Origin: Pseudobdellovibrionaceae bacterium
Lineage (GTDB): Bacteria > Bdellovibrionota > FAC87 > UBA2466 > JACKAF01
NCBI GenBank assembly: GCA_020635235.1
Contig: JACKAF010000003.1
Location: 76,051 to 140,050 of the forward strand
Reading direction: 5' to 3'
Length of the DNA stretch: 64,000 nucleotides
This document shows positions 4,128 through 50,804 of this stretch, one piece after another. The number at the start of each line of letters is the position of its first letter. The stretch's first letter is position 1. Below the pieces are notes generated by a model. That model was not told where the DNA came from, did no database searches, and worked only from the letters and a program-made list of their open reading frames with translations. The translations under genes and the position numbers were made by a program.

Positions 4128-4960
4128 AAAGCGTTGCCGAGCTCAACAATCTGCACCCAGGTGCGGACATTTACGTTATCGGTACCGGAACCAGTTTTAG
4201 AGTCTTTCCCAAAGACTTTTTCGAGGGCAAGATCACTATTGGGCTGAACTTGGCGTGGCAGTTGCTCCCCGTAACCTATGGGCTGACGACGAGACCGGAA
4301 CTCAACATACCGGAGTTTATCGATCAGAAGGCCCCGAATGAAATTGTGTGGGTTACCAAGTATCACAAGCTAATTACGGAAGAACAACGCGAGCATGGGA
4401 AAAAGCATTTCTACTTTTTCAGATCCGACGGTCAAGCGAACACCCAGCCTCCGGGTGAGCCCAGCGATTCGGGAAAAGTACTAGACTGGGTAAGAAAAAG
4501 CACAGAGGACTACCTTTACTTATGGTCTTCTGTCTCGCAGACGGCAGCCAACCTGGCGGCCAATATGGGTGCACGAAACGTCATTCTGGTGGGTTGTGAC
4601 AACGGGGCACTTGTAGGCAACCACCACGCGCAAAATCAACACACCATGTGGAAGGGGGTAAACCCGGACCACCGCTATCGCCAGTACTATGATGGGTTGG
4701 TGGAAGTGAGGCAGGCGCTGCGCAGTCGAGGCGTAAATTTACTGAGCATGACACCGTTTGTCCATTTGCTGGAACCGACGTTGGACTTTCGTTCTTTGTG
4801 CAAGGAACTCAATTGCCCGGAGTGGATTAATAACTCTGACATCTCAAAAGAGGTCGACGAGATCTACAGTTTACGTGAGAAATTCGGACATTTTATTCAG
4901 CAGAAGCAGAAGTCCGCGCGTAGTAAGTTGAAAAGCTATCTATCTAGAGTCTCTTCTTAG
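4124..4960 (+). CDS. DUF115/MptE-like (Maf / sialyltransferase-like) putative glycosyltransferase (module copy 1, gene B)
   Basis: ATGA start/stop overlap with gene A. Motifs IYVIGTGTSF and AANLAANMGARNVILVGCDNG resemble the DUF115 pattern. It is a paralog of 5905..6708. Confidence 0.45.
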   Translation: MKSVAELNNLHPGADIYVIGTGTSFRVFPKDFFEGKITIGLNLAWQLLPVTYGLTTRPELNIPEFIDQKAPNEIVWVTKYHKLITEEQREHGKKHFYFFRSDGQANTQPPGEPSDSGKVLDWVRKSTEDYLYLWSSVSQTAANLAANMGARNVILVGCDNGALVGNHHAQNQHTMWKGVNPDHRYRQYYDGLVEVRQALRSRGVNLLSMTPFVHLLEPTLDFRSLCKELNCPEWINNSDISKEVDEIYSLREKFGHFIQQKQKSARSKLKSYLSRVSS

Positions 4961-7354: not shown

Positions 7355-8402
7355 CTTGACGAAAAGAATCTTGGGAGCGCCCATTAAGCGGGTGCGCCCC
7401 GAGTTTGCCTACTTGCCGGCGCGAGCGATCAGTCGACTATACGGATCGGAACCCTCTGGGGTTCCCGTAGCTTTTGTGGTTCCTGAGGGTTCGCAGGGCT
7501 GGATTCTTGAAGGGATTTGCAGAGAAATTGCCCGCTACATGCCCGCGAGTAGTTATGTCTTTCATGACTCTCTTCGAAGGCTTCCGGATGCACAAAGTTA
7601 CTACGTGGCCCACTATGCACTTGTGCCCGAACTTCTGAAACTTAACCCGCGGGCCTGGAACCGGAGGATCTACACTTGGTTTACCCATCCGGACAAACGC
7701 TTGTGCCAAAGAGAAATGGTTTATTCGCTCAACTGTACAGAGAAAGTCTTCTGTACGAATACCGTGTTTGCACACCAGCTCAAACTTTCTGGAGTTGCGG
7801 AAGAAAAAATTGAAGTGGTTTTGGGCGGTGCCGATCCCGCGCGTTTCCGCCGGCATGAAAGAGGCTCCGGGCTCATCGGCCTCTGTACTGCCTATTACGA
7901 TCGCAAGCGCCCCGATCTCATGCTGCGCTTGATTCAGTCGATGCCACAGCAGCCATTTCTGCTGCTAGGAAAAGGCTGGCAGGAGTGGCCGGGCTTCCCG
8001 CACCTACTCGCGTTGCCGAATTTCAAATATGCCGAGGCCCAGTACGAAGATTACCCCAGTTACTACGATCAGATGGACGTTTTCCTAAGTGTGTCGGCGC
8101 TGGAGGGCGGGCCGATTCCGATGTTGGAAGCCATGATGAGCAACGTGGTCCCCGTCGTCAGCCGCACCGGATTTGCCCACGACATCATTAAACAAGGACG
8201 CAACGGCTTCATCTTTGATATAGAAGCGCCGCCTGAGGAAATCGCTTCTTTTATCAACCAGGCCTTGCAGCTCAAAGCGGACATCCGGTCCACGGTGATG
8301 CGCTACAGCTGGGAGGCTTTTTCCGCACAAATTCAACGGGCTCTGCACGTATTGCCCGAGCGTGTAGGCGCCCCTTCGGCTCCTCTTCCTCAAGGGATAT
8401 AG
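7323..8402 (+). CDS. GT-B fold glycosyltransferase (GT4/group 1-like)
   Basis: C-terminal EGGPIPMLEAMMSNVVPVVSRTGFAHDIIKQGRNGFIF matches the E-x7-E region of GT4 enzymes. The start is uncertain (7323, 7347 or 7356). Confidence 0.7.
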   Translation: MWRKSEPKVLNLTKRILGAPIKRVRPEFAYLPARAISRLYGSEPSGVPVAFVVPEGSQGWILEGICREIARYMPASSYVFHDSLRRLPDAQSYYVAHYALVPELLKLNPRAWNRRIYTWFTHPDKRLCQREMVYSLNCTEKVFCTNTVFAHQLKLSGVAEEKIEVVLGGADPARFRRHERGSGLIGLCTAYYDRKRPDLMLRLIQSMPQQPFLLLGKGWQEWPGFPHLLALPNFKYAEAQYEDYPSYYDQMDVFLSVSALEGGPIPMLEAMMSNVVPVVSRTGFAHDIIKQGRNGFIFDIEAPPEEIASFINQALQLKADIRSTVMRYSWEAFSAQIQRALHVLPERVGAPSAPLPQGI

Positions 8403-17984: not shown

Positions 17985-18779
17985 CTAGCCTCCCTGACCT
18001 GCATTTTGAGTTCCGCGATCTTCAAAATAGTAGGCCAGGATTTCGGAATCCTTCCACTCCTGGATGTTTTCGGGCTTTGCGAATTCGGCGCTACGTACCA
18101 CACGCTCCGCGGGCAACAAAACGGAGAGCCGTCGATCGGCCCACTGAATAGAGGTCACCATGACCGTTGGCACAATACGCATTTCGCTCTTGAACCACGA
18201 CCCTGTGTTTACAACCAAATGGAGGAGATGACCGTTCTCAAGATCAAGGATCACATCCTCCACTTTTCCCACACGTTGACCGAGACCTTCCATGTGGTAC
18301 CCACAGATTTCATCCACGCTACGTAAGTGAGCCTCTTTCTTTTTTAGCCTCTTCTCCAAGGTCTCTGCGACCGGAACGGGCAAGTCTTCTCCGGGCATTC
18401 GATAGGGGTATAGGCGGATCGGGCTGATGGTGTCTGGGACCCAATATTGGGGCCAGCCATAATATCGGTGGAGTGCGTCCTCAAGCTGACGGGAAACCGG
18501 TTTTGCCATGTCAGCATTTGGGGCCGCCTGCACGTGCTCGGCGTTGAGTGCGAAGTCAATCACTCGGTCCGCTCTGTCAATTCCGCTCAGCGCGAGAGGG
18601 GAGAGCAGAACTTTTTTTCCCGGCAGCCATTTGTGGGTATCTACGACAAAGTAACGGGCCATCCAATGAATATCATCGAAGTAAATATCCTGAAGTTTAC
18701 CGAGAATTTTATTGTCGGACGTGCGGATATGGTAATCCCGAAGAGTCGAAAAAAACTCAATGTTCCTATTTTCGTACAT
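17985..18779 (-). CDS. PRC-barrel domain protein (two repeats)
   Basis: Two segments fit the PRC-barrel pattern: KLGKLQDIYFDDIHWMARYFVVDT and RVGKVEDVILDLENGHLLHLVVNT. AGGAGG lies upstream of the ATG. Confidence 0.6.
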   Translation of the reverse strand: MYENRNIEFFSTLRDYHIRTSDNKILGKLQDIYFDDIHWMARYFVVDTHKWLPGKKVLLSPLALSGIDRADRVIDFALNAEHVQAAPNADMAKPVSRQLEDALHRYYGWPQYWVPDTISPIRLYPYRMPGEDLPVPVAETLEKRLKKKEAHLRSVDEICGYHMEGLGQRVGKVEDVILDLENGHLLHLVVNTGSWFKSEMRIVPTVMVTSIQWADRRLSVLLPAERVVRSAEFAKPENIQEWKDSEILAYYFEDRGTQNAGQGG

Positions 18780-18824
18780 GGGCTGCGTCCTCCTAGTCTC
18801 TTAAGTTGTTCTGCCTTTCAAGAT

Positions 18825-18840
18825 TGCAAAGCGAGTGCCA
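18825..18840 (-). promoter_or_regulatory. sigma-54 promoter (-24/-12) for the PRC-barrel gene string
   Basis: Minus strand reads TGGCAC-TCGCT-TTGCA with exact GG-N10-GC spacing, about 45 nt upstream of the ATG at 18779. Confidence 0.6.
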
Positions 18841-18910
18841 CTGCGGCTGGAAAACTCAGGCACGGCCGTGCTACAGTTTGTGCCCTTTGGTTACGAGGAA
18901 GTTGCGCTTT

Positions 18911-18926
18911 GTAACCAATTTGTTAC
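18911..18926. promoter_or_regulatory. palindrome GTAAC-N6-GTTAC, candidate activator (UAS) site
   Basis: GTAACCAATTTGTTAC lies about 70-85 bp upstream of the 18825..18840 promoter, in the divergent region next to the activator gene. Confidence 0.25.
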
Positions 18927-18987
18927 AGTGGGCCCGTTTTTTAGCGATGGTGAAGGGCATTTCAGCGGTTTTTATGGAGGTAAGTGC

Positions 18988-20400
18988 TTGCCACCCTTAA
19001 ATATTTCCCAATATTCCGGTCAAATCCTTGTGGTTGACGATGATCCCATCGTTTCGAAGGCCATTGAAACAGAACTGGAAAAAGTTGGCTTTAGAGTAAG
19101 CCGCGCAAGTTCTTTCAGCGAAATGTGGGAGCGATTGGGTGAGCGCGTCTACGACGCTATTTTGCTCGATCTTTTTCTGGACGGGGAAGACGGCCTGCAA
19201 GAGTTGCCGGCGATAGTGCGAGAGTGTCCGTTTAGCAAAGTAGTGGTGATGTCCTCCTATGGCACTGTAGAGGTCGTAGTAGATGCAATGGAGATGGGTG
19301 CCACAACCTTTGTCAGTAAATCCGATGATCTGCGCGAAGTCGTTGCTTCGTTGAAAGAGCGCCTTTTGGGCAGTGTTCTTCCGGCCGACGAATATGTGAA
19401 CGTTGCCGATGGTACCCCACTTGGCATCATCGGTCGAAGCCCCGCCGTCCAAAAGCTGCTCGCGAAAATTAATCAGGTAAAAGATGTGGATTCTACGGTT
19501 CTGATAACGGGAGAATCGGGTACGGGCAAGGAGCTGGCAGCGCGCGCCATTCATCGCACCTCGATCCGGCACAAGAATCGCTTTGATGCGATCAACTGTG
19601 CTGCGATACCGGAAAATCTGCTGGAGTCTGAGCTCTTTGGGCACCGCCGGGGTGCCTTTACCGACGCAAAAACGGATCGCAAAGGGCTCTTCGAACTTTG
19701 CTCCGAAGGGACGCTGTTCTTGGACGAGGTAGGAGAGCTCCCGCTTCACCTGCAGGTTAAGTTGTTGCGTGCTCTCCAAGAGAAGGAAATTACCCCGCTC
19801 GGTTCAAGTACGTCTATTCCGGTAAACACACGAATTGTCGCAGCCACCAATAGACACCTTGTCGACCTTGTTCGCGACAGAATGTTCCGTGAAGATCTCT
19901 TTTATCGTCTAGCCGTCCTGCATATCGAATTGCCGCCCTTACGGGATCGGCGGGACGATATCCCGCTTCTGACGGAGCACTTTGTGCAAAAGTTTTGTAA
20001 GCGGTTTTCACGCAGGATTGCTCCCCCATCTGCAGAATTGCTTGCCCGTCTTCACGCCTACCACTGGCCCGGCAATGTACGTGAATTACAAAATGCCGTA
20101 GAGCGTGGGGTTGTTCTGGCGCGCACGGAAGATCTGCGATTTGAAGATATGTTCGACTCCGAGCTCCGTCCCGATCTCCGCGAGGCATCGGGAGCAGGCG
20201 GCGCGCAGCACCAGGAGGCGTTTTGGACGCACCCGCTTTCTGAAGCCAAGCAAGAATTCGAAAAAGAATACCTGAAGCATCTATTGGAGCAGACGCGGGG
20301 AAACATCTCCGAAGTCGCTCGCATCTCTGGTCGATACCGTACCGATGTCTACCGACTGCTATCCAAACACGGTGTTGATTGGGAAGACTTCCGTCCTTAG
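18988..20400 (+). CDS. sigma-54-dependent response regulator (NtrC family: REC + AAA+ + Fis-type HTH)
   Basis: REC (ILVVDDD...LLDLFL), Walker A GESGTGKE, sigma-54 contact loop GAFTDA (variant of GAFTGA), and a C-terminal HTH. The in-frame TTG at 18988 is preceded by GGAGG. The longer ORF start at 18835 would overlap the divergent sigma-54 promoter. Confidence 0.9.
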   Translation: MPPLNISQYSGQILVVDDDPIVSKAIETELEKVGFRVSRASSFSEMWERLGERVYDAILLDLFLDGEDGLQELPAIVRECPFSKVVVMSSYGTVEVVVDAMEMGATTFVSKSDDLREVVASLKERLLGSVLPADEYVNVADGTPLGIIGRSPAVQKLLAKINQVKDVDSTVLITGESGTGKELAARAIHRTSIRHKNRFDAINCAAIPENLLESELFGHRRGAFTDAKTDRKGLFELCSEGTLFLDEVGELPLHLQVKLLRALQEKEITPLGSSTSIPVNTRIVAATNRHLVDLVRDRMFREDLFYRLAVLHIELPPLRDRRDDIPLLTEHFVQKFCKRFSRRIAPPSAELLARLHAYHWPGNVRELQNAVERGVVLARTEDLRFEDMFDSELRPDLREASGAGGAQHQEAFWTHPLSEAKQEFEKEYLKHLLEQTRGNISEVARISGRYRTDVYRLLSKHGVDWEDFRP

Positions 20401-22339: not shown

Positions 22340-22355
22340 TGGTACCATCTTTGCA
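22340..22355 (+). promoter_or_regulatory. sigma-54 promoter candidate for the SOD-family gene
   Basis: TGGTAC-CATCT-TTGCA with exact spacing, about 55 nt upstream of ATG 22411. Confidence 0.45.
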
Positions 22356-22410: not shown

Positions 22411-23070
22411 ATGTCTTATGAGGCGCGTGACTACACGCATTTGCTTGGCAATCTTCCAGGATTCAGTGATGAACAGCTGAAAGCTCACCTCGAACTCTAC
22501 CGAGGCTATGTAAAAGGCACGAACGAAATTATCGACAAATTGGAAAACCGCGATAGAAAGGCGGCTGCCTACGCGTTTGGTGAGTACAGCGAGTTGAAGC
22601 GTCGGTTACCAGTGGCTTACAACGGCATGTGGTTGCACGAGTTGTACTTTGACAATCTAAAACCAGATGTCGATGACGATGGCAGCTTCAGAGAGGCAGT
22701 CCAGAAACAGTGGTCTAGTGTAAAAGATTGGAAAGAAGGTGTTGTTGCGACCGCCAAGACCGGGCCCGGTTGGGTGATTACAGCTCTGGAACAGACAACG
22801 CACCAACTGCGGACCGTCTTCGTTGCCGAACACCATATAGGATGGATGGCTAACCACACACCAATCATGGTTCTCGATATGTGGGAACACGCCTACATGA
22901 TCGATTTTGGGATAGAAAAAACGGCCTACCTAAATGCTTTCATGGAGAACCTAAATTGGGAGATTCTTGACCGGCGCTACAGAGCTGCCGCGGCGGAGGT
23001 TCACAAAAACGTCAGTGACGCCCCGAGAAATCTAAACTACGTTCACGCGGCAGGAGGCGGAATAGGCTAA
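22411..23070 (+). CDS. Fe/Mn-family superoxide dismutase
   Basis: Metal-ligand contexts KAHLELY, WLHELYF and DMWEHAY. AAGGAGG lies upstream of the ATG. Confidence 0.8.
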   Translation: MSYEARDYTHLLGNLPGFSDEQLKAHLELYRGYVKGTNEIIDKLENRDRKAAAYAFGEYSELKRRLPVAYNGMWLHELYFDNLKPDVDDDGSFREAVQKQWSSVKDWKEGVVATAKTGPGWVITALEQTTHQLRTVFVAEHHIGWMANHTPIMVLDMWEHAYMIDFGIEKTAYLNAFMENLNWEILDRRYRAAAAEVHKNVSDAPRNLNYVHAAGGGIG

Positions 23071-43001: not shown

Positions 43002-43017
43002 TGGCATCGTATTTGCT
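43002..43017 (+). promoter_or_regulatory. sigma-54 promoter for the 43068 gene
   Basis: TGGCAT-CGTAT-TTGCT with exact spacing, about 50 nt upstream of ATG 43068. Confidence 0.6.
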
Positions 43018-43067: not shown

Positions 43068-43577
43068 ATGAAGAAACTTGGATTACTAGCAATTAGCTTG
43101 AGCGTTTTGGCCAGTGCAACATCTTTTGGAATCTATGATCCCACTTGGGAGCGTCCGGTTCAGCGTGCTGGCTTGAATGAAGCCTTCACACACGAAGCTT
43201 TCGAGTATCCGGTCGCGAGCGAATTGACCTTGCACAAACGTGATGGACAGCGCAAGGCCACCGTTTTCTCTCTAACGGAAGATACAGGGATACGTTGCGT
43301 AATGGCGCCTTGCCCATCTTTCAAAACTTCACTCTTTCAGATCGTTGGCGTTCGTAGAGTTGATCGCCTTCGCGTCGAATACAAAGCAGTCGAACTGCCG
43401 CGCGTTGAAGACAATGGGAAAATCGTGAATGGCGGCCGTAGTTTGGATGTCGTCGACTTCGCTGGTTTTCAACAGCAGTGGAATGTACGCGTCAGAGGGA
43501 TCGAAGGCCGTAGCCGCAACTATGTCGGGTATCCCGAAGCGGTGGTTACCATTCAATCACTCGAAGCGGGCGAGTAA
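43068..43577 (+). CDS. secreted hypothetical protein
   Basis: ATG 43068 follows TAGGAG. Signal peptide MKKLGLLAISLSVLASATSFG. The longer ORF start at 42912 would include the promoter. Confidence 0.6.
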   Translation: MKKLGLLAISLSVLASATSFGIYDPTWERPVQRAGLNEAFTHEAFEYPVASELTLHKRDGQRKATVFSLTEDTGIRCVMAPCPSFKTSLFQIVGVRRVDRLRVEYKAVELPRVEDNGKIVNGGRSLDVVDFAGFQQQWNVRVRGIEGRSRNYVGYPEAVVTIQSLEAGE

Positions 43578-44528: not shown

Positions 44529-44635
44529 AGATATGCGGCACACCGTATCACTGCCCGAGAGGCGGATCTACTGTTTTTGTATCGACCCAAGTTCTTGATG
44601 TTTGAGGGTTTTTCCCGCACTATGGGAGCTTGGCG

Positions 44636-45109
44636 ATGAAAAAGAAGAAAGAAAAACAGCTGATTGGCTGGCGCGAATGGATTGCGCTGCCCGACCTGGG
44701 GATCGAGAAGCTTAAGGTCAAGGTGGATTCCGGTGCCCGTACTTCAGCACTGCACGCCACCGACATCGAGTACTATGAGCGAGCGGGTCAGCCGATGGTG
44801 CGATTCAAGGTGTCCCCACTTCAGGACACTTCGCGGGGGCAAAAGCTCGTCCACGCCCATTTGGTCGGCAAGAAGGTGGTCAAGAGCTCCATCGGCATCA
44901 GCACACGACGCCCGACCATCCTGACAAGTGCTCGGATCGGCGAGCGGAAGTTTGAAATCCACGTCACCCTCATCAACCGCGACATGATGGGTTTCCGGAT
45001 GCTTTTGGGGAGAGAGGCCTTGCGCGGGCGGTTTTTGATTGATACTGAGCAATCATTCCTGCAGAACCCGGAGCGCAAGAAGAAGCTTCGAAAAAGAGGG
45101 TCCAAATGA
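44636..45109 (+). CDS. RimK-associated retropepsin-like protease (DUF785, 'ATP-dependent zinc protease')
   Basis: [32 protein letters not shown] is the DUF785 signature. It is directly coupled to rimK. Confidence 0.75.
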
Positions 45110-46011
45110 AGATTATCGTGATGTCCCGGAACCGGAACCTGTATTCCACGCGCCGGCTCGTGGAAGCCGGGGAGGTCCGAGGGCACGAGATGGTGGTGGT
45201 CGATCCGCTCAAGTGCTACATGAACATCACCTCCCACCGGCCGATGGTGCATTATAAAGACCTTACGTTGGAAAATGTGGACGCCGTCATTCCCCGCATC
45301 GGGGCTTCGGTTACCTTTTACGGAACGGCGGTTCTTAGGCAGTTTGAGATGATGGGAAGTTTTTCGCTAAATGAGTCGGTGGCGATTACGCGTTCCCGCG
45401 ATAAACTTCGTTCCCTACAAATTCTCGCAAAAAAAGGGATCGGCTTGCCGGTCACCGGCTTCGCACATTCCACGAAAATGACGGACGATCTGATCAAGAT
45501 GGTTGGCGGGGCGCCGCTTATCATCAAGTTGCTTGAAGGCACGCAGGGAAAAGGCGTCGTTTTGGCCGAAACTCATAAGGCGGCAGAAAGCGTAATTGAC
45601 GCGTTTAGGAACCTGAGTGCGCATTTTCTTGTGCAGGAGTTCATCAAAGAATCTGCGGCAACTGATATCCGAGCTTTTGTGATCGGCGACAAAGTCGTGG
45701 CGGCGATGAAGCGCACCGGCAAAGAAGGCGAGTTTCGGTCCAATTTGCACCGAGGGGGCACTGCTGAAGTCATCAAAATTTCTCCGGAAGAGCGCTCTAC
45801 GGCCATACGCGCTTGCAAAGGCATGGGGCTAAACGTTGCGGGCGTGGATATCATGCGCTCAAATCATGGGCCCCTCGTATTGGAAGTGAATTCCTCGCCG
45901 GGTCTAGAAGGCATAGAACGCGCCACCAAGAAAGACGTAGCCGGCATGATTGTAGGCTATTTGGAAAAAAATGCCGTACGGGGCAAAACCAAAACAAAAG
46001 GCAAGGGTTGA
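45106..46011 (+). CDS. rimK: ribosomal protein S6 / alpha-L-glutamate ligase RimK (ATP-grasp)
   Basis: [22 protein letters not shown]..., with ATP-grasp motifs and [18 protein letters not shown] overlap with the upstream gene. Confidence 0.9.
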
Positions 46012-47024
46012 TGGGGGAGATTCGAATAGGCGATACCGCCATAGCCTTGGGGGAAAGTAAGACTGCCAACCTTTTTGTCGCGCGTCTTTATGATTATACC
46101 GACGTCAGTATTCCGATCCGGGTGATACGAGGGCGCGAAGATGGCCCGGTGCTTTTCGTCTCTGCCGCGCTTCACGGAGATGAACTCAATGGCGTGGAAA
46201 TCATTAAGCGCTTACTAAGAAGCCCGTCTTTGAAAAAAATTTGTGGAACGCTCATTGCTGTTCCTATCGTCAACGTTTTTGGATTTAACAACCGCTCTCG
46301 ATATTTGCCGGACAGACGCGATCTCAACAGATCGTTTCCGGGGCGCGATGACGGTTCCTTGGCCTCGCAAATTGCGTATCTTTTTAGAACTGAAGTTGTG
46401 GAAAAGTGCACGCACGGCTTGGACTTGCATACGGGCGCCTTACACCGCACAAACTTGCCGCAAATCCGTACTAACTTCCAAGACAAGGAGCTGGTAAAGC
46501 TTGCCAAAGCATTCGGGGCCCCGGTGGTGTTGGACGCCTCTTTGCCAGACGGCTCGTTGCGGGCAACTTCAGGGAAAGTTCCGGTGCTTCTGTATGAAGG
46601 CGGTGAAGCGCTTCGTTTTGATGAATTCGCCATCAAGGCGGGCCTGGCAGGCACGATCCGCTTAATGCGCCATCTGAAAATGTTACCGCCTTCGACGAAG
46701 CCAAAGCCCACACGTCGCAGTTTCCTTGCTCAGTCGAGTTACTGGGTGCGTGCTCCGCAGAGCGGAACGTTGAGGGTCTTGCGGCATATTGGCGATTGGG
46801 TGCGCAAAGATTCGTTACTGGGCGTGATTTCCAACCCGTTCGGGGAAGACTCCGTAAAGATTTTCTCTAAAGAGGCCGGTGTAGTTATCGGAAAAACTAA
46901 TATTCCTCTCGTCAACAGAGGGGATGCACTCTTTCACCTAGCAACGGCAGACAAGATAGATCCGAGGATAATGGACTTTCCAGGTTTTGCGGATCTGGCG
47001 GTGGAGCAGCAGTTCGACGATTAG
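46011..47024 (+). CDS. succinylglutamate desuccinylase/aspartoacylase (AstE/AspA) family zinc hydrolase
   Basis: ATG 46011 overlaps the rimK stop (TGATG). Motifs SAALHGDELNG and DLHTG. Confidence 0.8.
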   Translation: MGEIRIGDTAIALGESKTANLFVARLYDYTDVSIPIRVIRGREDGPVLFVSAALHGDELNGVEIIKRLLRSPSLKKICGTLIAVPIVNVFGFNNRSRYLPDRRDLNRSFPGRDDGSLASQIAYLFRTEVVEKCTHGLDLHTGALHRTNLPQIRTNFQDKELVKLAKAFGAPVVLDASLPDGSLRATSGKVPVLLYEGGEALRFDEFAIKAGLAGTIRLMRHLKMLPPSTKPKPTRRSFLAQSSYWVRAPQSGTLRVLRHIGDWVRKDSLLGVISNPFGEDSVKIFSKEAGVVIGKTNIPLVNRGDALFHLATADKIDPRIMDFPGFADLAVEQQFDD

Positions 47025-47278
47025 TCTCTGCTAAGAGGTTCGAGGAACGGCGGAATGGAGTGTCGCTCCATTCGCCGCCTCAATTCTTCAAGGGAGATCC
47101 CCAATCGGTGGGCAGCGGCCTCCAGATTGAACTCGGTGCTTCTGAGCGTTTTCACCAAATGAACACACTCCACTTCATCGAGTGTTTTCTGTGCTCCGCC
47201 CGTAAGGGCCCGATTGGGATTGATCTTAATCGACAAAGTAAATCCGATGCTACGCACGGCCCGGTTTGCGGGGTGCAT
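47021..47278 (-). CDS. orphan Fis-type (HTH_8) DNA-binding ORF without AAA+ domain
   Basis: KTLDEVECVHLVKTLRSTEFNLEAAAHRLGISLEELRRRMERH resembles the C-terminus of the neighbouring activator (MTLDEVECIHIVRILEAMNFNVSKAAEALGIDRGTLYRKAEKY). The start is unclear because the frame stays open up to about 47390. Confidence 0.5.
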   Translation of the reverse strand: MHPANRAVRSIGFTLSIKINPNRALTGGAQKTLDEVECVHLVKTLRSTEFNLEAAAHRLGISLEELRRRMERHSIPPFLEPLSRD

Positions 47279-47396
47279 TGCTATTAGGCGTTCCCTTTTG
47301 ATTGTTGGTCGATTGCGGGAACGGCTGGTTCTTTTGCTGATTTGTATTCGGGGTTGTATTGGTTTTTTCTGCTTTAGGTTTATTCTGGGATTTCAT
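47250..47396 (-). CDS. 48-aa N/Q/T/P/K-rich small protein (not in ORF track)
   Basis: Own translation gives MKSQNKPKAEKTNTTPNTNQQKNQPFPQSTNNQKGTPNSNAPRKPGRA. The ATG is preceded by AAGGAGG at 6-nt spacing and by a consensus sigma-54 promoter. Confidence 0.5.
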   Translation of the reverse strand: MKSQNKPKAEKTNTTPNTNQQKNQPFPQSTNNQKGTPNSNAPRKPGRA

Positions 47397-47453
47397 GATT
47401 AGCCTCCTTATGGCTTTAGAAGATTGGGTATTGCGAATTCTGTAGATTTCTTA

Positions 47454-47469
47454 TGCAACGGCGGTGCCA
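47454..47469 (-). promoter_or_regulatory. sigma-54 promoter downstream of the activator gene
   Basis: Minus strand reads TGGCAC-CGCCG-TTGCA with exact spacing, about 58 nt upstream of ATG 47396. Confidence 0.6.
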
Positions 47470-47527
47470 GCGGCATTACGTGCCTGTGGAGTCAGAGCCG
47501 AGTGTGAAAAATCGCCACAGCGTTTGA

Positions 47528-47540
47528 TTTTGCCACACTC
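47528..47540 (-). promoter_or_regulatory. 13-mer GAGTGTGGCAAAA, candidate activator-binding site
   Basis: The identical 13-mer occurs at 49024..49036 (+). Each lies about 50-70 bp upstream of a sigma-54 promoter. A related TGTGGCGATTTTTCACACTC follows at about 47500-47519. Confidence 0.35.
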
Positions 47541-48918
47541 AGGAGGCGCTTTTTTTTAGGGAGATCTTATATTTCTCGGCCTTACGGTACAGCGTTCCGC
47601 GATCAATTCCCAAAGCCTCAGCGGCCTTGGAAACGTTGAAGTTCATAGCTTCCAGGATGCGAACGATGTGGATGCATTCTACTTCGTCCAGAGTCATCGC
47701 GGACGAGGGTGTCTCTAACAACTCGGCTGGCGCCGAATGTTTTACCGATTCAAGGATTTCGGCAGGAAAGTCTTCGGGAAAAAGCACGGGAGTTGTCGTC
47801 ATGGAAACAGCGTGACTGATGGCGTGTTCTAGTTCTCGCACATTCCCCGGCCAGTGGTACGCTTTCAAGAGTGCAATGGCTTCATCGGAGACGTAGTTTA
47901 CAGTCTTATTCTCGTCAGACGCCTGGCGGAACAAAAAGTGGTACACGAGTTCTTCGATGTCGTCCACGCGCTCCCGCAAGGGTGGGATCTTCACTGTGAT
48001 GACACGCAGTCGATACAAAAGATCATCGCGGAATAGATTCTTGCGCACAAGTGATTGAAGGTCGCGGTGGGTGGCGCTGATTACGCGGACATCCACCGAG
48101 CGGTTTTCCGATGAGCCCACACGGCGCACCTCACCTTCTTGAAGCACCCGCAAAAGTTTTACCTGTAGACTCGGGCTTATGTCCCCGATCTCATCTAGAA
48201 AAAGCGTGCCGCCGTCGACCTCTTCAAAAAAGCCCTTCTTGTCTGTGGTTGCTCCGGTAAAGGCCCCTTTTTCGTGACCAAATAGTTCAGACTCGAGCAA
48301 AGTGTCAGTCAGAGAAGAACAGTTGATGGCGAGAAACTTTTTCGATTTCCTACGGCTATTGCTGTGGATCGCACGTGCGATTAGCTCTTTGCCGGTGCCT
48401 GTTTCCCCAAGAATCAGGACGTCTTTGTCAGAAGCTGTAGCTTTGGCAACGGCCCGGTAGACTTCTAGCATTCCCGGAGACGTTCCAACGAGAACTTTGG
48501 GGGCGGACGGTACTCCTCTCAAGACTGGCGCATTCTGTTTTGAGTGGCTTGCAAGCGCCGAATAGCGCGCCTCTGCCCGGTGGGCAGTCGCGAGCAAGTC
48601 ACTAAGCGCGAAAGGTCGAGTCAGGTAGTCAAAGGCCCCGCAACTTACTGCTTCGATGGCCGCTTCCAAGCTCCCCACTCCTGCGAGCAGTATCACCATC
48701 GCAAACGGGTCCACTTCTTTTGCCGCGCGAATCAACTCGAAGTTTGCTTCGTGTGCCGGTTCGATATCGCTGATGATGAGCGGGGGCGCTTCGCGTGTGA
48801 GCTCGCCGATTGCTTCTTGGCGCGAAGTTGCACGCACTACGCGAAATCCCTCGTGTTCAAAAAACTGCGCAAGTTCTTTGAGCCGGGAAGCGTCGGGATG
48901 AACAATCAAAACAAGCAA
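47539..48918 (-). CDS. sigma-54-dependent activator (atypical REC + AAA+ + Fis-type HTH)
   Basis: Walker A GETGTGKE, GAFTGA loop, C-terminal HTH. The receiver keeps the Asp (IISDIEP) but lacks the usual acidic pair, Thr/Ser and Lys (HPD, LLAGVG, LTRPF). Confidence 0.9.
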   Translation of the reverse strand: MLVLIVHPDASRLKELAQFFEHEGFRVVRATSRQEAIGELTREAPPLIISDIEPAHEANFELIRAAKEVDPFAMVILLAGVGSLEAAIEAVSCGAFDYLTRPFALSDLLATAHRAEARYSALASHSKQNAPVLRGVPSAPKVLVGTSPGMLEVYRAVAKATASDKDVLILGETGTGKELIARAIHSNSRRKSKKFLAINCSSLTDTLLESELFGHEKGAFTGATTDKKGFFEEVDGGTLFLDEIGDISPSLQVKLLRVLQEGEVRRVGSSENRSVDVRVISATHRDLQSLVRKNLFRDDLLYRLRVITVKIPPLRERVDDIEELVYHFLFRQASDENKTVNYVSDEAIALLKAYHWPGNVRELEHAISHAVSMTTTPVLFPEDFPAEILESVKHSAPAELLETPSSAMTLDEVECIHIVRILEAMNFNVSKAAEALGIDRGTLYRKAEKYKISLKKSAS

Positions 48919-49023
48919 GAGAAAATCTCTAATAATGTTGGGACGTTAAAGACTACCACGGGCGTTCTTTATTTAAAAGTCCTTTGCGTCAACGTTGTGG
49001 AAAGCTGCTACAAGACAACGGGG

Positions 49024-49036
49024 GGAGTGTGGCAAA
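49024..49036 (+). promoter_or_regulatory. 13-mer GAGTGTGGCAAAA, candidate activator-binding site
   Basis: Identical to the minus-strand 13-mer at 47528..47540 and 49 nt upstream of the -24 GG at 49085. A related TGTGGAAAGC lies at 48996. Confidence 0.35.
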
Positions 49037-49083
49037 AACCCCCAAAACATCCAAATATTTGAATGCTTTAGCCTCAGAGTTCC

Positions 49084-49099
49084 TGGCATCGGCTTTGCT
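49084..49099 (+). promoter_or_regulatory. sigma-54 promoter divergent from the activator gene
   Basis: TGGCAT-CGGCT-TTGCT with exact spacing, about 50 nt upstream of ATG 49148. Confidence 0.6.
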
Positions 49100-49147
49100 T
49101 TACTAATGGGTGAGTAGTGAACTCGATCCCTTAGGAGGATTTTGGGA

Positions 49148-49399
49148 ATGCAAAAGCGATCGTATCTTATCGTACTTGGTTTGGCGGTTTTGATCGGCGT
49201 GGGCGTTAGCGTTCGCGCGCAACACAACGCAGCAAGCAACTTCGGCCAAAATGGGTATTTGGTAGCCGAGTCAGATGGCTATGATGATGCTTACGGATCC
49301 GATTCCTCCACGAGCGAGGACTCGGGAACAACGACGACCGACACCGGCACGACCGACTCCGGCACGTCGAACGACGACTATTCTTCCGAAGACTTTTAG
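49148..49399 (+). CDS. small secreted, strongly acidic D/S/T/G-rich protein
   Basis: AGGAGG lies upstream. Signal peptide MQKRSYLIVLGLAVLIGVGVSVRA. Mature part includes ...SDGYDDAYGSDSSTSEDSGTTTTDTGTTDSGTSNDDYSSEDF. Confidence 0.55.
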   Translation: MQKRSYLIVLGLAVLIGVGVSVRAQHNAASNFGQNGYLVAESDGYDDAYGSDSSTSEDSGTTTTDTGTTDSGTSNDDYSSEDF

Positions 49400-49436
49400 T
49401 CCTCGGTGAAACCCTAAACCCCTGAAGGAGATTCAA

Positions 49437-49730
49437 ATGAACTGGTTCTTGAAACTTGCCTTGCTAGCGTCCCTAGTGATGGTCGTCGCGCCCGTGATGG
49501 CCGATGATTCTGAATGGAACGAAGAGCCCGCCATGGAAGAAGGCGTGGATACCGCCCCTCCGGCCGCCCAGGCGCCCGAAGCGGCCAAGCCGAAAAAAGC
49601 TCGTGCTAAAACGGCCAAGGCAGCCAAAAAAGTCAGCCACAAATTGGCCAAGAAAGAATGTTTGAAGGAAAACCCGAAGCTTAAAGGCAAAGCGCTGAAA
49701 GAGTGCATCAAAGGCAAACGCGCTTCCTAA
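49437..49730 (+). CDS. small secreted protein with acidic N-part and Lys/Ala-rich basic C-part
   Basis: AAGGAG at 6-nt spacing. Signal peptide MNWFLKLALLASLVMVVAPVMA. The basic part reads ...AAKPKKARAKTAKAAKKVSHKLAKKECLKENPKLKGKALKECIKGKRAS. Confidence 0.6.
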   Translation: MNWFLKLALLASLVMVVAPVMADDSEWNEEPAMEEGVDTAPPAAQAPEAAKPKKARAKTAKAAKKVSHKLAKKECLKENPKLKGKALKECIKGKRAS

Positions 49731-49752
49731 TAAGCAAAGTTTTGCTGTAAGG

Positions 49753-49785
49753 ACCCAGGCGTCTTCGGATGCCTGGGTTTTTTAT
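49753..49785 (+). terminator. intrinsic terminator of the two-gene small-protein operon
   Basis: ACCCAGGC-gtcttcggat-GCCTGGGT followed by TTTTTTATTTT. Confidence 0.7.
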
Positions 49786-50804
49786 TTTCTGGAAGCTGTT
49801 CTCTTTTCTTTTAGAAGGTGATCGTAGAGGAATTGCGCGTAGGCCCGGTTCATTTCTGCCTTCGGGTGCCCGTCCGGTTGGCGATCCAAGGATAAACTCC
49901 GCTCAGCGGCCACGTTTGGAAGAGCGTCTACCGCCGATATGAAATCCAAGTTCCTGGCGCGCAACGCGGGCTCAAAGCTACTTGGAAGTTTGCCATCCAA
50001 ATGAAGCAGCAATACCGGGGCAGGGGCGTAGGCGACCGCCTGGGCCAAGATTGCGGGTCCCAGTTTTTCGCGACAATGCTGGCGTTGGAAGCTAAGCGGG
50101 AGTTGGGCGCCAAGGGCGTATACTCGAGAATGGCTCAATAGTGTCTTAAGGCCGCCGGTCACCCAAGCAAAGAAATTCTGATTCTCCAAAAAAACTGCGC
50201 GCCTTGATTTCGCCGGTATTCCCTCCAAACTTAATTCTCCGCCTCGCTGTTTGAAGTAGGGTTTTCGAAACTGGAAAGAGAAGTCTGTGCAGCTCCTATC
50301 GAGATCATCCGCGATGAATCCAAATACGATGCGCTCAGGGTGATACGCCGGGAGTATATGAGTGGTAACCAAAGCGGCTTGATCTATGCCGAACCCTTGT
50401 ACGCCGAAATTCAGTACTTCATATTCGGTTCCAAGCTTTTCCTGTAGAAAGTGGGGTAGGGTTTCTTCGTTCGCGACGCCCACTCCAAACACGAACGAGT
50501 CGCCCACAAAAGCAATGCGCCGTTTGGAACTTCGCAACGCGGGTTCTCGCTGCTGGCGCCAACCGTTCTCCGTGACGCCGCTTTCCACTTTGTTGCGCCA
50601 GCCCAGAAGGGGGTCCTGATTCTTGTCTTCCGGGGGAGCCTCCGTTAATGAAAAAAAGTAAGGGGCTTCCGCAGAAAATCTGTGGACCAGAAAAACGGTG
50701 TCGATGGGGTACGCAAGCGCAAAAAGTGCCAAAAAGCCTTCTGAGATAGCCGCGCCCAGCGCTGCCGACAGACATCCGAATAAGATTTTCTTGGAAGTTT
50801 TCAT
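49782..50804 (-). CDS. SGNH/GDSL-family hydrolase, membrane-anchored
   Basis: N-terminal anchor and block I motif IAFVGDSFVFGVGV. Confidence 0.6.
   Translation of the reverse strand: MKTSKKILFGCLSAALGAAISEGFLALFALAYPIDTVFLVHRFSAEAPYFFSLTEAPPEDKNQDPLLGWRNKVESGVTENGWRQQREPALRSSKRRIAFVGDSFVFGVGVANEETLPHFLQEKLGTEYEVLNFGVQGFGIDQAALVTTHILPAYHPERIVFGFIADDLDRSCTDFSFQFRKPYFKQRGGELSLEGIPAKSRRAVFLENQNFFAWVTGGLKTLLSHSRVYALGAQLPLSFQRQHCREKLGPAILAQAVAYAPAPVLLLHLDGKLPSSFEPALRARNLDFISAVDALPNVAAERSLSLDRQPDGHPKAEMNRAYAQFLYDHLLKEKRTASRK

Follow-up and report, generated by a model that had tools for sequence, protein, structure and literature searches.

Organization of the locus

The DNA considered here is a 64,000-nucleotide stretch of contig JACKAF010000003.1 from a Pseudobdellovibrionaceae bacterium (referred to below as the window), and the system in question is a gene for an NtrC-family sigma-54 activator (positions 47539..48918, minus strand) together with the very small genes that lie on either side of it. 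Divergent from the activator gene is a predicted sigma-54 promoter, P1 (TGGCATCGGCTTTGCT, 49084..49099, plus strand), which precedes genes for two predicted exported proteins of 83 and 97 amino acids. A second predicted promoter, P2 (TGGCACCGCCGTTGCA, 47454..47469, minus strand), is located 70 nt past the activator stop codon and precedes genes for a peptide of 48 amino acids and a Fis-type helix-turn-helix (HTH) protein of 71 amino acids. We refer to the activator gene, both promoters, and the four small genes as the module.

A preliminary description of this DNA had proposed that the activator gene is flanked by two promoters with −24 and −12 elements, and this proposal was borne out. P2 has no mismatches to the consensus TGGCAC-N5-TTGCW and P1 has one, and each is positioned 40–50 nt upstream of a Shine–Dalgarno (SD) sequence and a start codon. 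A consensus search of the whole window with up to one mismatch recovers both sites among six matches, compared with 2.1 expected. More weight, however, should be given to the conservation of P1 and P2 in relatives than to this excess of matches.

Three other metagenomic contigs are informative in this respect. The first, L083 (GCA_041391485.1), was found by a search with the 97-amino-acid protein and carries the whole module in synteny, with the gene order of the window (RimB-like, RimK, AstE-like, HTH, activator, 84- and 95-amino-acid proteins, and the following genes). The other two, L087 and L088, are short contigs found by a search with the HTH protein. Each holds, in order, the activator 3′ end, the candidate upstream activating sequence (UAS) discussed below, P2, an open reading frame (ORF) for 44–45 amino acids, and the HTH gene, such that the operon of peptide and HTH genes recurs in all three contigs. 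The preliminary description had named synteny with activator orthologs as a check, and it is found for the whole module in L083 and for this shorter chain in L087 and L088.

Both promoters are kept in L083, where the counterpart of P1 is at positions 7644–7659. P2 is also kept in L087 and L088, although the surrounding spacer diverges. P1 and P2 are conserved relative to L083, whereas the synonymous sites of the flanking long genes are saturated. Given this conservation and the correct register of the −24 and −12 elements, P1 and P2 are predicted to be sigma-54 promoters. No sigma-70 promoter for the activator gene was found at the threshold of our scan.

All four small ORFs are genes under purifying selection. 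Ratios of nonsynonymous to synonymous substitution (dN/dS) were computed pairwise between the window and L083, which share ∼76% DNA identity and differ to saturation at the synonymous sites of the activator, RimK, and GDSL-like genes. The four ORFs have dN/dS values of 0.05–0.15, and all of their indels are multiples of three. About two consensus matches with no more than one mismatch are expected by chance per 64 kb, and low-complexity ORFs are common artifacts, which could be taken to mean that the locus is an assembly of fortuitous promoter matches and spurious reading frames. We rejected this scarcely credible explanation because as many as three other genomes retain the promoters even though overall identity is only ∼76% and synonymous sites are saturated, and because selection acts on every one of the four ORFs.

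The activator has a degenerate receiver domain

The activator is 459 amino acids long and includes Response_reg, Sigma54_activat, AAA_lid_14, and HTH_8 domains. Its Sigma54_activat domain (Pfam PF00158) is matched with an E value of 1e-69, and both a Walker A sequence (GETGTGKE) and a GAFTGA loop can be read in the translation. The C-terminal Fis-type HTH spans residues 409–450 (PF02954, E = 1.4e-11), and a receiver fold is also present (PF00072, E = 2e-12). When compared with NCBIfam equivalog models, including those for AtoC, NtrC, ZraR, GlrR, LuxO, and PspF, the protein scores below every cutoff. The highest score, 397 bits, is with AtoC, for which the cutoff is 714. By these sequence comparisons, the protein is therefore classed as a generic NtrC-family enhancer-binding protein (EBP) rather than a named one.

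The receiver was aligned with those of canonical relatives and with that of E. coli NtrC. Relative to the canonical receivers, VDDD is replaced by VHPD, the conserved threonine by alanine, and the conserved lysine by arginine. The acceptor aspartate and one acidic residue are all that remain of the phosphorylation residues, and in the 57% identical homolog P0002 (locus L001) the acceptor is also gone (D to E). No HisKA or HATPase_c domain was detected in the neighboring ORFs tested (42.2–55.5 kb of the window), and no kinase is encoded beside the activator in the syntenic locus of L083. Since the receiver is degenerate and no kinase is nearby, control of this protein by phosphorylation is unlikely. 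It is more likely, judging from these features, that input arrives through a partner protein, a ligand, or the expression level of the activator.

The activator matches without any difference a protein of a metagenome-assembled genome at NCBI. It is 93% identical to its ortholog in L083 and 87% identical to that in L087, and P0002 is the next relative. EBPs with ∼50% identity have canonical VDDD or SDIRM receivers. They were rejected as members of a different orthogroup and could not be used for synteny. The only one of these examined in context, in L002, has an adjacent histidine kinase. A scan of GTDB genomes with the activator was dominated by generic EBP motifs and returned paralogs at 36%–45% identity alone, with no information on synteny, and together the GTDB genome and JGI metagenome scans added nothing useful.

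Candidate enhancer sites shared by P1 and P2

The 220-nt regions upstream of P1 and P2 have an exact 13-mer in common, GAGTGTGGCAAAA, which begins 59 and 71 nt before TGGCA. At P1 this candidate UAS is found at 49025..49037 (plus strand) and is kept in L083. At P2 it is found at 47528..47540 (minus strand), where the final two bases of the activator stop codon are part of it. By our own arithmetic, the chance that two 220-nt stretches share an exact 13-mer is ∼0.001. Each region also includes a candidate dyad of the form TGTGG-N7-YYACA, which is TGTGGAAAGCTGCTACA at P1 (48996..49012, plus strand) and TGTGGCGATTTTTCACA at P2 (47503..47519, minus strand). Of the three relatives, L083 and L088 keep the P2 dyad, whereas L087 lacks it. 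In L083 the half-sites of the P1 dyad are swapped symmetrically, from TGTGG..CTACA to TGTAG..CCACA, as would be expected if this element were a true dyad site. The sequence TGTGGCAAAATCAAACGCT is invariant in all four genomes, whereas the spacer that extends from it to the −24 element diverges.

These motifs were derived from the same sequences in which they were counted, and the following occurrences are therefore post hoc. The sequence TGTGGCAAAA occurs twice in the window, compared with 0.24 expected, and both copies are in the upstream regions of P1 and P2. Likewise, TGTGG-N7-YYACA occurs twice, once upstream of each promoter. At both promoters the 13-mer and dyad are located 45–90 bp upstream of the −24 element. 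NtrC-type DNA-binding domains usually bind cooperatively at a pair of sites located ∼100 bp upstream of the sigma-54 site (PMC11407668). The paired candidate sites, which are roughly 65–105 bp upstream of the expected transcription start, fit this description (PMC11407668). Because the 13-mer and dyad are unique to P1 and P2 within 64 kb, we infer that a single EBP serves both promoters, most simply the activator encoded between them.

It is unlikely that P1 and P2 are served by a different EBP and that their adjacency to this activator gene is incidental. Bacteria of this group encode many EBPs, a second one is encoded in the window, and two further consensus sites (18825 and 43002) are positioned in front of genes, all of which would favor such an arrangement. 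However, the same rare motif is present upstream of both flanking promoters and nowhere else in the 64 kb. Moreover, the block of activator, UAS, and P2 is kept in four genomes, and the UAS overlaps the activator stop codon.

Several other sigma-54 sites are present in the window. The region 17985–20400 encodes the second NtrC-type activator, located within ORF 18835–20400 (plus strand), whose receiver has a canonical DD pair. A perfect promoter sequence (18825–18840, minus strand) is divergent from this gene and would drive expression of a predicted 264-amino-acid PRC-barrel protein. A one-mismatch site, TGGTACCATCTTTGCA (22340–22355, plus strand), is 56 nt before ORF 22411–23070. The promoter sequence TGGCATCGTATTTGCT (43002–43017, plus strand) is conserved, with a perfect consensus in L083 at 1571–1586. 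It precedes the gene (43068–43577, plus strand) for a predicted secreted protein of 169 amino acids that belongs to no known family and whose gene ends with a terminator-like hairpin. This third conserved promoter lacks TGTGGCAAAA and is therefore probably the target of another activator.

The interval that separates the enhancer-like sites of P1 from its −24 element includes a conserved AT-rich block, AAATATTTGAAT (49053–49064), which is kept in L083. By eye, its reverse complement, ATTCAAATATTTG, differs by one mismatch from the IHF consensus WATCAANNNNTTR.

The P1 operon encodes two predicted exported proteins

The first gene of the P1 operon (49148..49399, plus strand) encodes an acidic protein of 83 amino acids. 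Its ATG start codon is 9 nt after the SD sequence TAGGAGGA and is the start called in L083. The N-terminus resembles a signal peptide, and the predicted mature part of 59 amino acids is rich in D, S, T, and G. This part includes 13 D/E residues and no basic residue, with an isoelectric point (pI) of ∼4. The gene has a dN/dS of 0.095 and differs from its L083 counterpart by in-frame indels of 6 and 3 nt. The protein matches no Pfam or NCBIfam family.

The second gene (49437..49730, plus strand; dN/dS 0.048, with an in-frame 6-nt indel relative to L083) encodes a protein of 97 amino acids. Its predicted signal peptide is followed by an acidic segment, a lysine/alanine-rich segment, and a C-terminal helical hairpin with two cysteines. 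AlphaFold models the hairpin at residues 68–96 with a predicted local distance difference test score (pLDDT) of 81–87 and the remainder as disordered, and both cysteines are invariant. No sequence match was found in Pfam, NCBIfam, or the PDB. A likeness of the cysteine motif to PsiF repeats was supported by no search and was set aside. Relatives of the protein are P0121–P0124, and the gene for the distant relative P0124 (locus L084) lacks a sigma-54 promoter.

The operon is closed by an intrinsic terminator (49749..49792, plus strand) composed of a hairpin with a 15-pair stem (49749–49782) and a T-run, and this element is kept in L083. The preliminary description had reported two secreted mini-proteins that end at a clean terminator. 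The terminator holds and both genes are conserved, but the start of the acidic protein has been moved from TTG 49142 to ATG 49148.

The P2 operon encodes a basic peptide and a Fis-type HTH protein

The first gene of the P2 operon (47250..47396, minus strand) encodes the 48-amino-acid peptide. Its SD sequence, AAGGAGG (47403..47409, minus strand), is 6 nt before ATG 47396 and is kept in L083 and L088. This agrees with the earlier recognition of an N/Q/T/P-rich ORF with a perfect SD, and the dN/dS of 0.048 and an in-frame 3-nt indel relative to L083 indicate that it is protein coding. The peptide is rich in N, Q, T, P, and K and strongly basic (pI 11.3), has a grand average of hydropathy (GRAVY) of −2.1, and lacks a hydrophobic segment. 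Orthologs of 44–47 amino acids occupy the same position in L083, L088, and L087, although the gene was left uncalled in the annotation of the close relative L083. The conserved parts are an N-terminal MK-Q and the C-terminal RKPGRA. The latter is invariant in the four genomes, and all six of its codons differ at the third position but never at the first or second. The peptide has no Pfam or NCBIfam match, and a phmmer search of 1.84 billion representative proteins returned only the peptide itself. A literature search yielded nothing relevant on RKPGRA, or on Bdellovibrio with sigma-54 or enhancer-binding protein.

This pattern of substitutions bears on whether the P2 transcript is instead a sigma-54-dependent regulatory RNA in which the peptide ORF is incidental. 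The position of P2 directly after the activator stop mimics the arrangement of cbrB and crcZ, and the region is A/C-rich. However, the peptide has the coding signature described above (its dN/dS value, in-frame indel, conserved start, stop, and SD, and third-position-only variation in RKPGRA), no Rfam match was found in 44–52 kb at E values up to 1, and the transcript goes on to include a second protein gene. The coding signature and the lack of an Rfam match led us to reject the small RNA (sRNA) explanation, which we regard as very improbable.

The second gene of the operon (47021..47236, minus strand) encodes the 71-amino-acid HTH protein, which matches HTH_8 (PF02954, E = 6e-10). The preliminary description correctly noted an HTH ORF, which is conserved, but assigned it 85 amino acids and an overlap with the peptide ORF that does not exist. 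From the start codon TTG 47236, dN/dS relative to L083 is 0.154, whereas the 14 codons upstream have a value of 3.8. The TTG start is common to L087 and L088, where it follows the peptide's stop. From these two observations we conclude that the 14 upstream codons are noncoding. TTG 47236 is 13 nt after the peptide stop, and thus the two genes do not overlap.

The HTH protein is 44% identical over 50 amino acids to residues 403–452 of the activator (E = 2e-12), including the sequence TLDEVEC(V/I)H(L/I)V. When it was compared with ∼200 EBPs, the cognate activator orthogroup scored highest, albeit by a small margin, and its best PDB sequence matches are NtrC4 DNA-binding domains. By sequence, the protein is a paralog of the DNA-binding domain of the activator. 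The similarity is consistent with a local partial duplication of this domain, either from the activator gene or from its ancestor. In all four orthologs the recognition helix starts with an invariant L-E-E (GISLEEL), whereas the EBPs compared have GIDR(A/G)TL. The R and T of this latter motif correspond to Fis R85 and T87, the conserved DNA-contacting residues at the start of the helix. Because R-x-T is replaced by L-E-E, the DNA specificity of the HTH protein is predicted to be altered or lost. A single-sequence AlphaFold model, used for helix positions alone, has three helices at low confidence (pLDDT 60). A scan of metagenome contigs with the HTH alignment gave nine matches, all of which were discarded as C-termini of unrelated full-length EBPs.

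Within the 16-kb syntenic block, nucleotide conservation is highest in the HTH gene, where identity is 0.90–0.96 compared with a background of ∼0.76. The dS of this gene is 0.27, compared with values of 0.85 or more, or saturation, in neighboring genes (window vs L083). Genes for a RimB-like zinc protease, RimK, and an AstE/AspA-family protein (44630–47024, plus strand) are convergent on the HTH gene, and the stop of the AstE-like gene overlaps the HTH stop. This arrangement is kept in L083, and its AstE end is kept in L087. Just past the AstE-like stop is a stable plus-strand hairpin (∼47048–47079, z = −2.9) that may be the terminator of the AstE-like operon, antisense within the HTH coding region. 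Its sequence is not kept in L087. No clear terminator was found after the HTH gene, and hence P2 transcripts might run antisense into the RimB/RimK/AstE cluster.

A homologous activator in a different gene context

The locus that encodes P0002, L001, shares certain features with the module. A perfect sigma-54 promoter is located right after the activator stop and precedes, almost without a leader, a gene for a CdaA-like diadenylate cyclase (DAC). A second perfect promoter precedes a gene for a secreted acidic protein of 80 amino acids, followed by glutaminase and glutamine synthetase (GS) genes. The intergenic region upstream of the activator gene has two outward-facing one-mismatch sites, one of them before a gene for an MscS-like channel. 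Copies of a 14-mer, TGTGTTTCGCTACA, are found in this intergenic region and upstream of the acidic-protein promoter. The perfect promoters and the repeated 14-mer lie within L001 coordinates 291–459, 2933–2948, and 4180–4298. PMC4987338 lists a PspF site, TAGTGTAATTCGCTAACT, to which the 14-mer is similar.

The acidic proteins of the window and L001 are alike in architecture and composition, which by sequence is a compositional analogy only. The wider group may share a theme (ion, osmotic, or nitrogen), as the L001 context hints, but none is established for the module in the window.

A model for the module

The explanation that we favor by a modest degree is that the locus is a self-contained sigma-54 module, in which exported effectors are produced from P1 and cytoplasmic feedback or relay mini-proteins from P2. 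At its center would be an orphan NtrC-family EBP whose control probably depends on a partner or ligand and not on phosphorylation. This protein would bind the paired TGTGG-type sites 45–90 bp upstream of P1 and P2 and switch on both promoters. Transcription from P1 would yield two exported, largely disordered proteins that are likely envelope effectors, one of them purely acidic and the other made of an acidic part, a polybasic part, and the two-cysteine hairpin. The module may in this way take part in the physiology of envelope stress. Transcription from P2 would yield the basic, disordered peptide that ends in RKPGRA and the Fis-type HTH protein. These products most likely would feed back on the activator as an anti-activator or competitor, as PspA does on PspF. 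Alternatively, they could pass the signal on to other promoters, in the way that Nac acts as a relay for NtrC.

Several observations weigh against this model. A second EBP is encoded in the window, and binding of the candidate motifs by the activator is something we infer from their position and uniqueness. The module is present in only four closely related metagenomic sequences, and so the co-occurrence of its parts has little phylogenetic depth. The peptide-HTH operon is absent from L001, where the sigma-54 promoters are followed by genes for enzymes and a channel, and homology between the two acidic proteins was rejected (BLASTP E ∼1). Finally, the scan for further targets covered 64 kb of the genome.

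This last point makes a wider regulon, with distant targets or an HTH relay, the main uncertainty. It is possible, although we consider it less probable than a self-contained module, that the main targets of the activator (such as enzymes or transporters) are encoded elsewhere and are reached directly or through an HTH relay, in which case the four small genes would be only the linked part of a larger regulon. The window covers only part of its contig, which is 481 kb or longer, one output of the module is an HTH protein, and the sigma-54 promoters of L001 precede the MscS-like channel gene, the DAC gene, and the glutaminase/GS cluster. The relay from NtrC to Nac is an established precedent for such a design. 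On the other hand, the UAS motifs are found within the window only at the two flanking promoters, the third nearby conserved promoter (43002) lacks them, and the recognition helix of the HTH protein lacks the conserved R-x-T.

These considerations also bear on the nature of the output. The preliminary description had stated that no enzyme or transporter is attached to the activator. This holds locally, and the four products match no described family beyond HTH_8. Its further proposal, that the output is four very small proteins, stands insofar as all four are conserved genes. However, the HTH protein is probably regulatory, and the real output may extend further.

A bolder extension of the self-contained model, to which we give little credence, holds that an activator with a dead receiver is controlled by its own products, which would make it a novel type of internal feedback on sigma-54 activators, that a Fis-like protein was born from the C-terminus of an EBP beside its parent gene, and that the exported disordered proteins, polyanionic and polycationic, are a new class of envelope effector. 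If so, the HTH paralog, which lacks the canonical DNA-contact residues, might form inactive heterodimers with the activator or occupy its sites, and the disordered peptide with its invariant RKPGRA tail could be a co-regulator of the activator.

Comparison with known sigma-54 systems

Sigma-54 regulons in which small envelope proteins are the local output are known, as exemplified by PspF with pspA-E and ZraR with zraP (PMC4987338). In the Psp regulon the product PspA feeds back as an anti-activator, and the small periplasmic protein ZraP additionally has a modulatory effect on the Zra system (PMC4987338). As in Psp, the activator gene of the module and a sigma-54 operon for small envelope-related (here, predicted exported) proteins are divergently oriented, the activator is probably not controlled by phosphorylation, and the anti-activator feedback exerted by PspA is the role that we propose, conditionally, for the P2 products. 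In contrast, PspF has no receiver whereas the activator of the module keeps a degenerate one, none of the four small proteins has a Pfam or NCBIfam match to PspA (PspA/IM30 family), PspB, PspC, PspD, or PspG, and the module has a second promoter downstream of the activator gene.

The resemblance to ZraSR and ZraP is of a similar kind. An NtrC-type response regulator is accompanied by divergent sigma-54 promoters, one of which serves a small periplasmic protein (a predicted one in the window). However, the window activator scores 343 bits with the ZraR model, far under the cutoff of 760, no ZraS-like kinase is adjacent, and the exported proteins are disordered or form a short hairpin with no match to the ZraP, CpxP, or Spy families. 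Thus, the logic of Psp and Zra is matched, yet every test of membership fails, whether by protein family, kinase, or equivalog score. The module resembles, by analogy, a variant of the known sigma-54 envelope switch that is built from different parts. The earlier view that this is not a described sigma-54 regulon is therefore upheld with regard to membership, but the design as such has precedents in PspF/pspA-E and ZraR/zraP.

A proposal that Fis originated from the DNA-binding domain of NtrC is attributed to Morett and Bork (1998) as cited in PMC7166090. Like Fis, the 71-amino-acid protein is a stand-alone HTH_8 protein homologous to the C-terminal domain of EBPs. In contrast to Fis, its gene lies ∼300 bp from that of its likely parent and is presumably controlled by the parent protein, its recognition helix has L-E-E in place of R-x-T, and there is no dusB linkage. 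Its N-terminal portion of ∼20 residues is short and poorly predicted.

Some sigma-54 activators have an adjacent sRNA target, such as CbrB, whose target crcZ is downstream of cbrB, and LuxO, whose target qrr1 is next to luxO. The module shares with CbrB-crcZ and LuxO-qrr a sigma-54 promoter directly beside or after the activator gene. It differs from these systems, and from GlmY/Z, in that purifying selection acts on the two proteins encoded by its transcript, which matches no Rfam family.

Our understanding of sigma-54 activators usually comes from their sensory domains and from the enzymes or machines under their control. In this locus, the entire local output is made up of mini-proteins from orphan families, whose genes are of a type that annotation pipelines miss. 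Feedback on such activators is known for PspA, FleN, HrpV, and NifL, and if the P2 peptide and HTH paralog regulate the activator, then a compact feedback design would be added to this repertoire. Although the organism is uncultured, the module is only ∼2.8 kb in length and is small enough to be rebuilt in a heterologous host. If the proposed origin of the HTH gene is true, then this locus would also provide a living example of how Fis-like proteins arise from EBP genes.

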